DNA of 64,000 nucleotides, from NCBI RefSeq assembly GCF_903893715.1, contig NZ_CAITNG010000094.1, positions 28,560-92,559 on the forward strand, written 5' to 3'. The position numbers and the translations under genes are program-made. Under the pieces are notes generated by a model. The model made no database searches, had not been told where the DNA came from, and saw only the letters and a program-made list of their open reading frames with translations. This document shows positions 60,464-63,507 of the stretch, piece by piece. This stretch comes from an uncultured Mucilaginibacter sp. Lineage in GTDB: Bacteria > Bacteroidota > Bacteroidia > Sphingobacteriales > Sphingobacteriaceae. The stretch's first letter is position 1; every line of letters starts with the position of its first letter.

Positions 60464-61534
60464 ATGTCCAACTTATTCAGTCCCTTAACCATAAAGGGCA
60501 TCGAGTTAAAAAACCGTATCGCCGTATCGCCCATGTGCCAGTACTCCAGTATGGATGGTTTTGCCAACCCATGGCATACCGTACACCTGGGCAGCTTTGC
60601 CGTTGGCGGTGCAGCGTTAGTGATGACCGAAGCTACCGCCGTATCGCCCGAGGGCCGCATTACCGCATCCGACCTCGGCATCTGGAAAGACGAACACATC
60701 GACCAGCTTAAGCAAATAACCACCTTCATCGAAAAACAAGGTGCAATTCCCGGCATACAACTGGCGCACGCCGGCCGCAAAGGCAGCCACAGCGAACCAT
60801 GGAATGGCGGCACACAAGTACCCGTTTCGGCCGAAGGCGGCTGGCTCACCGTAGCCCCCAGCGCCATCCCTTTTAAGGAAGAGACCGAAGCACCCGAAGC
60901 ACTGGATGCCGCGGGCATAAGCAAATTGACCGGCAACTTTGAACAGGCCACCTTGCGCGCCCTGAAAGCCGGCTTTAAAGTGATCGAGATCCATGCTGCC
61001 CACGGGTACCTGCTCCATGAGTTTTTATCGCCTTTAAGTAATCACCGTACAGATGAATACGGAGGTACTTTCGAAAACCGTATACGCCTGCTGCTCCAAA
61101 TTACCGATGCCGTTCGTTCGGTATTGCCCGATGAAAACCCGCTCTTCGTCCGCATATCGGCTACCGACTGGACCGAAGGTGGTTGGGATGCCGAACAGGC
61201 CATAAAATTATCCGCCATACTCAAACAGCATGGCGTGGACCTCGTCGATTGCTCATCAGGCGGTAATGTGCCGCACGCCAAAATACCCGTTGGCCCCGGC
61301 TACCAGGTGCAATTTGCCGAAAGCATCCGCAAGGAGACTGGCGTGCTCACCGGGGCAGTTGGCATGATAACCGAGCCGCAACAAGCAGACGACATCATTA
61401 AAAACGGTAAGGCCGATATCGTTTCGCTTGCGCGCGAGTTGCTGCGCGACCCGCATTTCCCGCTTCGCGCGGCTCATGCGCTCGGTGTCGATATCAAATG
61501 GCCGCTGCAATACGAGCGGGCCAAATGGTCATGA
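60464..61534 (+). CDS. NADH:flavin oxidoreductase, old yellow enzyme (YqjM/NamA-like subclass)
   Basis: VSPMCQYS, EATAVSPEGRI, QLAHAGRK, HAAHGYLLHEFLSPLSN, RISATDW, LARELLRDP, QYERA. Confidence 0.93.
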   Translation: MSNLFSPLTIKGIELKNRIAVSPMCQYSSMDGFANPWHTVHLGSFAVGGAALVMTEATAVSPEGRITASDLGIWKDEHIDQLKQITTFIEKQGAIPGIQLAHAGRKGSHSEPWNGGTQVPVSAEGGWLTVAPSAIPFKEETEAPEALDAAGISKLTGNFEQATLRALKAGFKVIEIHAAHGYLLHEFLSPLSNHRTDEYGGTFENRIRLLLQITDAVRSVLPDENPLFVRISATDWTEGGWDAEQAIKLSAILKQHGVDLVDCSSGGNVPHAKIPVGPGYQVQFAESIRKETGVLTGAVGMITEPQQADDIIKNGKADIVSLARELLRDPHFPLRAAHALGVDIKWPLQYERAKWS

Positions 61535-61588
61535 TAACAAACAAAAATCATCCTATATTGTACTCATTAAAACATCATCACAAAAACC

Positions 61589-62011
61589 ATGAAACGTACC
61601 GCAAAAGCCCATTGGACCGGCACTTTAAAAGACGGCCAGGGAACAATCTCGACCCAAAGCACCGTATTGAACAACACCCAGTACTCATTTAAAACCCGTT
61701 TTGCCGACGGCATTGGCACCAACCCCGAAGAACTGATAGCCGCCGCCCATGCCGGCTGCTTTACCATGGCCGTTGGCGCTACACTTACCCAGGCAGGCTT
61801 TACCCCCGGCGACCTGGAAACCGAAGCCATTTTAGACCTTGATATGGTTGCCCTGAGCATCACAGGCATCCATCTGGAACTAAAAGCATCGGCCATCGAA
61901 GGTGTTTCCGAAGAAAAATTTCAGGAAATAGCCGCGGGTGCAAAAGCAGGCTGTATCATATCAAAGGCCCTCAACGTGCCTATCACCATGACTGCTACTT
62001 ACGGCGCCTAA
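61589..62011 (+). CDS. osmC: OsmC family peroxiredoxin
   Basis: AHWTGTLKDGQG, GTNPEELIAAAHAGCFTMA, AKAGCIISKAL. Confidence 0.93.
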   Translation: MKRTAKAHWTGTLKDGQGTISTQSTVLNNTQYSFKTRFADGIGTNPEELIAAAHAGCFTMAVGATLTQAGFTPGDLETEAILDLDMVALSITGIHLELKASAIEGVSEEKFQEIAAGAKAGCIISKALNVPITMTATYGA

Positions 62012-62033: not shown

Positions 62034-62066
62034 AAATAGCGATGGGTTTTAAACCCATCGCTATTT
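62034..62066. terminator. Long perfect inverted repeat after osmC (terminator, or 5' hairpin of the next gene)
   Basis: AAATAGCGATGGGTTT-T-AAACCCATCGCTATTT; promoter-like TACATTTG (62016-62023) before it and TACCTTTG (62070-62077) after it. Confidence 0.7.
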
Positions 62067-62084
62067 ATTTACCTTTGGGCACCT

Positions 62085-62726
62085 ATGTCAATCTTTAACC
62101 AGCTTATGATAGGTTCCGGCGTATGCTGGACCATTACTTACCTGCTTATCCTCAGGCGCGGCATACTCGATCTTACCTATGGCATGCCCGCCGCGGCCTT
62201 GTTTGCCAACCTGGCCTGGGAGATTATCTATTCCTTCATCCACCCGCATACCATGCCCCAATTGGCGGTCGACCGCATTTGGTTAACGTTCGATTTCCTG
62301 CTGCTGTTGCAGTACCTGCGCTTCGGCCCCTCGGTGCGTAAAGTACGCATCAACATTACCTTTTACCTCGAGTTTTTGCTTTCCTTCAGCGTAACCTTTA
62401 TCCTTATTCTGTTGGTGAGCGATGCCCTGCACGATGATAACGGCGCCTATGTTGCCTTCGGCCAAAACCTCATGATGTCGGCCCTGTTCATTGCCATCCT
62501 GCGCGACCGTAAATCCGCCTCGGGGCAAAGCATTTACATCGCATTGTTCAAGCTTGCCGGCACACTGTTGGCCTCAGTTGCCTTCTACACCCAAACCAAA
62601 ACCTACAGCCATTCGCCGCTCATGCAGTTCCTTTTTGTTGCCATTTTAGCTTACGATGTGGTTTACGTTTTCATGCTCGCCAACCAACTCAAACGCCAGC
62701 GTATCAAAGTTTTCGGGCGTTTTTGA
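62085..62726 (+). CDS. Integral-membrane terpene-cyclase-like protein (Pyr4/PaxB/XiaE family)
   Basis: About 7 TM helices; WxxxY (15-19), YGMP, NxxWE (Glu46), RxSxxGQS, KxxGT and YDVVY (Asp191) match Pyr4/PaxB hallmarks. Confidence 0.75.
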   Translation: MSIFNQLMIGSGVCWTITYLLILRRGILDLTYGMPAAALFANLAWEIIYSFIHPHTMPQLAVDRIWLTFDFLLLLQYLRFGPSVRKVRINITFYLEFLLSFSVTFILILLVSDALHDDNGAYVAFGQNLMMSALFIAILRDRKSASGQSIYIALFKLAGTLLASVAFYTQTKTYSHSPLMQFLFVAILAYDVVYVFMLANQLKRQRIKVFGRF

Positions 62727-62976: not shown

Positions 62977-63055
62977 TATGAAATTATCTGTTCATCCCAC
63001 CTTGCCAATCCATACAATATAAGAAAAATTGTTGAGATTTGGAGAAAATATAGCT

Positions 63056-63286
63056 ATGGATTGCGATTTATGCAAGGTCGGCACAACTACAAAAGGGGTT
63101 GTTTTGGTTACCTTAGAAAAGGGCAATTCCATTATCCTGATCAAGGATGTACCCGCAGATGTTTGCAGTAATTGCGGACATTATTACCTGTCGGAAGAAA
63201 TTACCGCCGAAGTGCTTCAAAAAGGCAATGAAGCCGTTGCCAATGGTGCTGAATTAGAGGTCATTAAATTGAAGGTAGCTTCCTGA
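63056..63286 (+). CDS. YgiT/MqsA-type zinc-finger protein (antitoxin-like, no HTH, no adjacent toxin)
   Basis: CDLC...IILIKDVPADVCSNCGHYY; start at 63056. Confidence 0.85.
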   Translation: MDCDLCKVGTTTKGVVLVTLEKGNSIILIKDVPADVCSNCGHYYLSEEITAEVLQKGNEAVANGAELEVIKLKVAS

Positions 63287-63312
63287 CACTTGGCCGATCC
63301 GTCAGTTTTTAT

Positions 63313-63507
63313 TTAGATCTGAGAATAAGCGAACACCGCCTGTAATTGCGTCTCGGTAAGATTTGGATAACTGTCAAACAACATTTGTTCAGTCCAACCA
63401 GTCGACAATAATTCCAGTATCAATTCTACCGACAAGCGCGTGCCTTTGATGGTTGGCTTAGCCAATAAAATGTTTTTATCCGAAACAATGTAATCTTGCC
63501 AATTCAT
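63313..63507 (-). CDS. DUF433 family protein (antitoxin-like, no adjacent PIN toxin)
   Basis: IVSDKNILLAKPTIKGTRLSVELILELL..GW....L..SYPNLT...LQAVFAY; TAAATTTG element on the minus strand at 63512-63519. Confidence 0.85.
   Translation of the reverse strand: MNWQDYIVSDKNILLAKPTIKGTRLSVELILELLSTGWTEQMLFDSYPNLTETQLQAVFAYSQI

Follow-up and report, generated by a model that had tools for sequence, protein, structure and literature searches.

A solitary gene of the Pyr4-like transmembrane terpene cyclase family in a Mucilaginibacter genome

A stretch of 64,000 nucleotides from an uncultured Mucilaginibacter sp. (contig NZ_CAITNG010000094.1, positions 28,560 to 92,559; here called the window) was analysed with the focus on one gene at window positions 62085-62726 of the forward strand, which runs from an ATG start codon to a TGA stop codon and encodes a protein of 213 amino acids (aa). 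In an earlier note on this DNA, the open reading frame (ORF) had been read as a stand-alone homologue of the membrane terpene cyclases Pyr4 and PaxB with about seven transmembrane (TM) helices. From the profile searches, structure prediction and genome comparisons described here, the gene is estimated with a probability of roughly 0.55 to encode a functional protein of the Pyr4-like transmembrane terpene cyclase family that is maintained by selection, with presumed catalysis. The features of the locus are given in Table 1.

Table 1. Features of the cyclase homologue gene and of the region directly upstream, in window positions.
Feature	Position	Strand	Basis
Pyr4-like transmembrane terpene cyclase homologue gene (PF25129), 213 aa, seven helices	62085..62726	+	ORF, Pfam, AlphaFold2
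Glu46 codon GAG (N-L-A-W-E, TM2), presumed Bronsted acid, presumed Pyr4 E63 equivalent	62220..62222	+	conservation, profile position 59, hhalign
Asp70 codon GAT (TM3), third buried acidic residue, conserved family-wide	62292..62294	+	conservation, hhalign
Asp191 codon GAT (Y-D-V-V-Y, TM7), presumed Pyr4 D218 equivalent	62655..62657	+	conservation, profile position ~214
Intrinsic-terminator hairpin, 15-bp perfect stem followed by a T-rich run; ends the unit of the Old Yellow Enzyme (OYE) gene and osmC	62034..62066	+	fold
TACCTTTG, putative -7 promoter box of the Bacteroidota type (TAnnTTTG); distance to the ATG, 7 nt	62070..62077	+	position, orthologue conservation

Sequence constraint was analysed in an alignment of 39 orthologues from Bacteroidota, Chloroflexota, Actinomycetota, Planctomycetota, Nitrososphaerota and Methanoperedens. 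The motifs that had been listed for the protein (WxxxY, YGMP, NLAWE, GQS...KLAGT and YDVVY) are all present, as W15-x3-Y19, Y32-G-M-P35, N42-L-A-W-E46, G147-Q-S149, K156-L-A-G-T160 and Y190-D191-V-V-Y194, and their core residues are invariant in this alignment. It contains 33 invariant columns, including W15, Y19, G33, P35, N42, W45, E46, W66, D70, Q127, N128, S132, R142, G147, Q148, K156, G159, D191 and Y194; M34, S149 and T160 are conserved to at least 90%, and Y32, L43, A44, L157, A158 and Y190 are variable. The start at M1 is supported by the fact that codons 2-7 vary among the orthologues mainly at third positions; the start codon is GTG in one orthologue lineage. For the Mucilaginibacter orthologues a nonsynonymous divergence (dN) of 0.12-0.27 was obtained with saturated synonymous divergence (dS), and omega (dN/dS) was 0.09-0.16 where it could be computed. 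The protein is under strong constraint, which falls above all on the residues with a catalytic role in Pyr4.

The single significant family found in Pfam is PF25129 (Pyr4-TMTC), with 95.5 bits against a cut-off of 27 and E = 5e-27, which bears out the proposed membership in the Pyr4/PaxB family. The match spans residues 3-199 of the protein and positions 16-222 of the 227 positions of the profile. Due to the fact that the seeds of PF25129 are solely fungal (PMC13307353 SI, supporting information), the Mucilaginibacter protein reaches this score against fungal enzymes only. Apart from PF25129, only a noise match to DUF6234 (E = 1.7) was listed by Pfam at E <= 10. NCBIfam and PADLOC gave no match for the protein, and sequence searches of the PDB with the single protein and with a 39-sequence profile yielded nothing at E <= 10.

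The active-site residues of Pyr4 are E63 and D218 (PMC6486709), and the conserved Glu has been proposed as the catalytic acid in bacterial and fungal members (PMC13307353 SI, Fig. S1 legend). Mapping to the Pyr4 residues was done by scanning fragments of the protein against the Pfam model. Residues 31-56 align gap-free to PF25129 positions 44-69, placing Glu46 at position 59, and the 31-residue TM2 fragment on its own scores 28.3 bits; residue 199 lies at position 222, placing Asp191 at about 214. Glu46 and Asp191 are 155 profile positions apart, which equals the distance between E63 and D218 of Pyr4, and both are offset by +4 from the Pyr4 numbering. The two residues are therefore presumed to be the equivalents of E63 and D218.

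The retention of these residues was determined in 141 representatives of 50%-identity clusters and in 53 members of a second, divergent subfamily (A3). Glu is found at the position of Glu46 in 133 and Asp at that of Asp191 in 131 of the 141 representatives (about 93-94%), in agreement with the importance attached to both residues in the earlier note; Asp occurs at the position of Asp70 in 136. Taken together, E46, D70, D191, N42 and K156 are kept in 89-97% of the representatives; in the second subfamily the first four are kept in all 53 members and K156 in 52. Moreover, comparison by hhalign with this second subfamily, which is of a marine Acidimicrobiia type, gave a probability of 99.6%, with N42/W45/E46, D70, N128, S132, K156/G159/T160 and D191/Y194 as identical aligned residues; in this alignment E46 is paired with E77 and D70 with D103 of A3. 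A homologue search started from a divergent actinobacterial member led only to another orphan subfamily.

The AlphaFold2 model calculated from the 39-orthologue alignment (mean predicted local distance difference test score, pLDDT, 94.6; predicted template modelling score, pTM, 0.88) consists of seven long helices (residues 3-29, 36-52, 59-85, 91-114, 121-142, 150-175 and 178-204), as expected from the helix number noted before. Foldseek found no match at E <= 1e-3 in the PDB library, in which no solved structure of the Pyr4 family is present. The top matches were cystinosin (E = 8.8e-3, TMq 0.61), SWEET proteins (TMq ~0.5) and the KDEL receptor (TMq 0.55-0.65), with 9-15% identity to the protein. 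On the strength of these matches, and of the solitary position that is often seen for transporter genes, the protein could be a non-enzyme, namely a seven-helix transporter, scramblase or receptor of the PQ-loop/SWEET/KDEL-receptor kind sharing ancestry with the cyclases. The chance of this is judged to be slim, because no PQ-loop or MtN3/SWEET profile is matched in Pfam even at E <= 10, no Foldseek match reaches 1e-3, and the internal 3+1+3 repeat was not detected when residues 1-88 (TM1-3) were compared with residues 116-208 (TM5-7) by hhalign (probability 1.1%); in addition, the residues catalytic in Pyr4 are the most conserved ones. What is shared with the PQ-loop, SWEET and KDEL-receptor proteins (TOG superfamily) is the topology of the seven-helix bundle, for which the best PDB matches give TM values of 0.5-0.65; PQ motifs, profile match and detectable repeat are all missing in this protein. 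The resemblance appears to be on the level of topology only and would reflect at most a distant fold relation. A family with better support than Pyr4, for example a PQ-loop transporter, was thus looked for in Pfam and by Foldseek and was not found, and in the literature searched no paper mentions a PQ-loop, SWEET or KDEL-receptor resemblance for Pyr4-type cyclases.

Upstream of the cyclase gene lies a starch or maltodextrin utilisation locus (SusC/D/E, a GH31 and several GH13 glycoside hydrolases, a major facilitator superfamily transporter and a pullulanase), followed by a GH53 gene, a small hypothetical gene, a metallo-beta-lactamase-fold gene on the opposite strand, an Old Yellow Enzyme flavoreductase gene and the OsmC gene. 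Downstream, two small toxin-antitoxin-like genes, glyS, an ATP-binding cassette (ABC)/gliding-type transporter, dnaN and others are located. The absence of prenyltransferase, epoxidase and polyprenyl synthase genes next to the cyclase gene, which had been observed before, holds from -22 kb to +9 kb, an interval in which no terpenoid gene was found. At 63029-63507, in the interval that separates the cyclase gene from glyS, a YokU/MqsA-like zinc-ribbon antitoxin homologue (85 aa, + strand) and a DUF433 protein (64 aa, - strand) are encoded convergently; this interval is different at each of the orthologous Mucilaginibacter loci that were examined.

The terminator hairpin lies within the 73-bp gap after osmC and folds with -25.8 kcal/mol (z = -5.66; reached by 0/200 shuffled sequences); an equivalent hairpin with T-run is visible at the orthologous loci. 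A TAnnTTTG box is located 3-7 nt before the start codon in 4/5 distinct orthologous upstream regions, in each case after hairpin and T-run. That the gene has its own promoter element, as had been suggested, is thus borne out with regard to the position and conservation of the box; since TAnnTTTG shows no enrichment over the whole window (62 found vs 71 expected), its function as a promoter is one that we infer. Start at M1 and a box 3-7 nt before it would together imply a leaderless or very-short-leader cyclase mRNA, and terminator and conserved -7 box appear to mark a separate transcription unit for the cyclase gene. The OYE-OsmC pair (60464-62011) is kept in most of 41 sampled Mucilaginibacter genomes, and the cyclase gene follows the pair in just three genomes, this one and the two most closely related to it. 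OYE-OsmC was considered as an operon partner and rejected, as the pair occurs genus-wide with or without the cyclase gene and a terminator lies in between. Judged from this arrangement, the cyclase gene looks like an added, separately transcribed gene, apparently inserted beside the conserved pair.

PF25129 was found in 3/41 sampled Mucilaginibacter genomes (this host, where it is present as a single gene, and two others), in 2/36 other genomes of the genus in one sample and in 0/24 genomes from other families of the class. It is present in 24/400 evenly sampled Bacteroidota (~6%), mostly as other subfamilies and concentrated in one small-genome family, in 7/400 Actinomycetota and in 1/300 of the phylum sample around Nitrosopumilus. 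When 1.84 billion representatives were searched with a profile, 1584 clusters were retrieved at a threshold of E <= 1e-3 and 371 at one of E <= 1e-30. The orthologous group of the gene, which was defined by the motifs AFGQNLMM and AN[LI][SA]WE, occurs in 214 species genomes. Among its bacterial carriers are Mucilaginibacter, Hymenobacteraceae, Cyclobacteriaceae, Nostoc, Planctomycetaceae, Chloroflexota, Rubrobacteraceae, Binatia, Myxococcota, Gammaproteobacteria, Trueperaceae and a Petroclostridium; among the archaeal carriers are Nitrosopumilus, Nitrososphaera and Methanoperedens. The group is tightly conserved, with 41-52% identity over a range that extends from Bacteroidota (Mucilaginibacter), Cyanobacteriota, Planctomycetota and Chloroflexota to the ammonia-oxidising Nitrososphaerota and to Methanoperedens.

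In the maximum-likelihood tree the sequences group by taxon, with a separate clade for each. That of Mucilaginibacter (support 100) sits on a long stem and is placed as sister to Planctomycetaceae (weak support, 89), not to the Hymenobacteraceae/Cyclobacteriaceae clade. The archaeal sequences, those of Methanoperedens included, all fall into a single clade (support 99). Three Nostoc copies are plasmid-borne, one of them on pNPUN02 of N. punctiforme PCC 73102; 2/3 of these plasmids are typed as conjugative. Because the gene is present in 3/41 Mucilaginibacter genomes, is plasmid-borne in Nostoc and has a Mucilaginibacter clade apart from the other Bacteroidota, it is, as far as genome comparison goes, accessory and horizontally mobile, not an ancestral housekeeping gene. 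The idea of an ancestral primary function of the family, which had been raised for this gene, conflicts with this patchy occurrence.

The neighbourhoods of 74 orthologous loci from more than 12 phyla were compared with up to 10 kb of flanking sequence per side where the contig allowed. All-against-all BLAST clustering, for which the ORFs of 80 loci were used, revealed no conserved neighbour in the 74 orthologous loci. Recurrent neighbours are generic and stand at scattered distances (ABC ATPases, aldo-keto reductases, histidine kinases and response regulators), and the 133 nearest neighbour genes fall into 142 Pfam families with at most 3 members each. Histidine kinases lie within about 250 bp of the cyclase gene in 3/74 loci and within 1.6 kb in a fourth; an amine-oxidase-type flavoenzyme is not among the 25 commonest neighbour families. 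No terpenoid gene occurs within 8 kb of the orthologues of Mucilaginibacter sp. PPCGB 2223, Adhaeribacter, Nitrosopumilus and Methanoperedens. The gene is solitary and monocistronic throughout the orthologous group.

Given that the gene is solitary, patchy and mobile, that its carriers are mostly soil, sediment, lichen or plant-associated and that an endogenous pathway is not assignable, the same acid chemistry might serve to modify or detoxify exogenous membrane-partitioning terpenoids or epoxides, as an accessory means of protection or transformation and not of biosynthesis. However, no regulator (e.g. TetR) or efflux gene is conserved alongside in the 74 loci, and 33 residues invariant across domains suggest one defined substrate instead of a range of xenobiotics, so that a role of this kind is considered unlikely. 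In the ranking of the alternatives it stands first, followed by the non-enzymatic role, a dispersed biosynthetic pathway and, as the least likely, a function in carotenoid modification.

The isoprenoid genes were inventoried in the host, the genome of which is 100% complete in 161 contigs. The host has one SQS_PSY gene (crtB), which adjoins crtI, and two genes from crtB, at C139:985-1665, a 226-aa two-domain PF18916 lycopene cyclase is encoded. The carotenoid cluster as a whole (C139:985-4625) comprises the fused PF18916 lycopene cyclase, a 180-aa gene of unknown function, crtB and the divergent crtI; an NRPS-like (nonribosomal peptide synthetase) adenylation/thioesterase gene is located a few kb beyond it. 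The PF18916 domain is not matched in Pfam by the cyclase homologue itself. Two polyprenyl synthases are also encoded in the host, as are three members of the UbiA family, of which one lies in the cytochrome oxidase operon of the window; in the genome search neither a cytochrome P450 (P450) nor a squalene-hopene cyclase was found. Carotenoid cyclisation is thus already provided for in the host, in which nothing resembles a meroterpenoid pathway.

Cyclisation or other modification of carotenoids would suit a pigmented host with crtB and crtI, as many bacterial carriers are pigmented as well (Hymenobacteraceae, Rubrobacteraceae, Trueperaceae and Planctomycetaceae). Against it stand the dedicated PF18916 lycopene cyclase in the same crtI-crtB cluster, the absence of the cyclase gene from 38/41 Mucilaginibacter genomes and the lack of SQS_PSY in 17/20 carrier genomes searched. 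Among these 17 are each of the 11 archaeal genomes, of which two are single-chromosome assemblies, as well as an Ardenticatenaceae genome of 10.4 Mb and a complete genome of Petroclostridium. Squalene- and phytoene-derived lipids are therefore not the common substrate of the orthologous group. The carotenoid substrate that had been among the suggestions of the earlier note is disfavoured by the host cyclase and by these carriers, a function in carotenoid modification is very improbable, and carotenoid or squalene as a common substrate is unlikely.

A cyclase of a dispersed meroterpenoid or terpenoid pathway, with the other genes elsewhere in the genome, would have a multi-locus fungal precedent in ascofuranone (PMC6486709) and could draw on the two polyprenyl synthases and three UbiA-type prenyltransferases of the host. 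In the same direction points an annotated isopentenyl phosphate kinase gene, which follows the orthologue by ~370 bp on two related Nostoc plasmids, p057_N (L116:17862-18662) and pNPUN02 (L117:10011-10763), and which in N. punctiforme is interrupted by an IS4 transposase. But the prenyl genes of the host are present at housekeeping number, one UbiA belonging to the cytochrome oxidase operon, P450 and squalene-hopene cyclase are missing, 0/74 loci are clustered, and among the carriers are small archaeal genomes (1.6-1.9 Mb) in which secondary metabolism is nearly absent; such a pathway is accordingly rated as quite unlikely. The kinase is unusual for a cyanobacterium with the methylerythritol phosphate (MEP) pathway and is the only direct isoprenoid neighbour seen for the group. 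It was rejected as a general partner, being present neither in 80 other loci nor in this genome.

The fungal enzymes Pyr4, PaxB, AndB, AscF, MacJ and AdrI resemble the protein in size (~210-240 aa), in their seven TM helices, in the strong match to the fungal-seeded hidden Markov model (HMM), in the motifs N-x-x-W-E (TM2) and D-x-x-Y (TM7) at profile positions fitting E63 and D218, and in a chemistry initiated by protonation, which for this protein is presumed. They differ in that their genes share clusters with those of a polyketide synthase (PKS), a prenyltransferase and an epoxidase, and in that their substrates are precursors of meroterpenoids or triterpenoids in epoxidised form, whereas the present gene is solitary and prokaryotic. 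The bacterial XiaE/XiaH, DmtA1, TylF, GroF and ZigF belong to the same family and keep the catalytic Glu (PMC13307353 SI), but they are clustered with polyprenyl synthase, UbiA-type prenyltransferase and P450 genes and are mostly from Actinomycetota. Kakumu and Helfrich (JACS 2026) collected 1107 bacterial Pyr4-like proteins and kept 264 with terpenoid genes within 20 kb, of which 183 are from Actinomycetota and 37 from Bacteroidota, including 3 from Sphingobacteriaceae; about 840 of the 1107 homologues, without terpenoid neighbours, were discarded (PMC13307353). A subset was regarded by these authors as unlikely to be involved in meroterpenoid biosynthesis on the ground that its genes stand alone, with reference to Back et al. 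2023 and Tang and Matsuda 2024 (PMC13307353 SI). Since no terpenoid gene lies within 20 kb, the present gene would fall among the discarded homologues, and due to the fact that the stand-alone subset is already in the literature (PMC13307353 SI) the gene is less new than had been assumed in the earlier note. What can be read from the sequence is the family assignment; the stand-alone subset is flagged but unexplored in the literature. No paper in the literature searched ties Pyr4-like proteins to archaea, Bacteroidetes or PQ-loop folds.

Most likely, the protein is a seven-helix membrane enzyme that works like the characterised members of the family, and probably an acid-catalyst enzyme. For the catalysis and the substrate class we infer the following course: the buried Glu46 in TM2, helped by Asp191 in TM7 and Asp70 in TM3, would protonate a lipophilic, bilayer-dissolved substrate at a C=C bond or at an epoxide. 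This substrate would most probably be a prenyl chain, and its protonation would be followed by cyclisation or, possibly, by hydration instead. Because the orthologous group has no partner genes, the substrate would have to be in the membrane already. UbiA prenyltransferases are present in 5/5 bacterial carriers tested, which leaves room for a prenylated quinone as substrate without arguing for it. The menaquinone side chain and the polyprenol named in the earlier note stay among the candidate substrates; more broadly, these are the tail of a polyprenyl quinone, some other polyprenyl lipid or a terpenoid of exogenous origin. More specifically, the group may cyclise the end of a polyprenyl lipid that is common to bacteria and archaea (the side chain of a respiratory quinone or a polyprenyl or dolichyl carrier), although the odds of this particular version are low.

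Several points weigh against a Pyr4-like cyclase activity. The top structural matches are the transporter- and receptor-like proteins named above; the characterised members work in clusters that supply a prenylated substrate, and no such cluster exists here; and the host has neither P450 nor squalene-hopene cyclase. Furthermore, the equivalence of Glu46 and Asp191 to E63 and D218 is drawn from positions in the family profile in place of a direct Pyr4 alignment, and the literature searched holds no characterised member of the orthologous group.

Pyr4-type cyclases are known almost only from natural-product clusters, while the majority of the prokaryotic homologues stand alone; going by the figures of PMC13307353, the solitary share in nr is about three quarters, and it has been set aside deliberately in genome mining. 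The present gene is a clean example of the solitary group, being highly constrained, mobile, bacterial as well as archaeal and untied to squalene or carotenoid synthesis. The identity of its substrate would show the role of the bulk of this enzyme family outside secondary metabolism and could reveal a single-gene modification of membrane lipids. If the ends of polyprenyl lipids were indeed cyclised, undescribed ring-terminated membrane isoprenoids would exist that are conferred by a single mobile gene.

Further observations were made at related loci. Mucilaginibacter rivuli is the closest relative with a name, and in it the gene of a PAS histidine kinase (L010:10798-12843), a multi-pass membrane protein of 681 aa, starts 156 bp downstream of the cyclase orthologue. 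The homologue on pSCL4 of Streptomyces clavuligerus (31% identical) has glycosyltransferase, TauD and carbamoyltransferase neighbours and no terpenoid gene. In the protein P0190 (527 aa), which was retrieved in the search of representatives and comes from a high-GC organism, a Pyr4-like domain with 34% identity to the protein studied here is joined to a truncated P450, of which the N-terminal two thirds are present and the haem-binding end is missing; it could be a real fusion or a frameshifted pair of adjacent genes and probably reflects a cluster-type relative. Finally, a different Pyr4-like subfamily with the motifs ALNIAWE, AFLQNLLMS and KWLGT occurs in 13/86 sampled genomes (2-3 Mb) of one Bacteroidota family, and one copy of it contains two in-frame stops.

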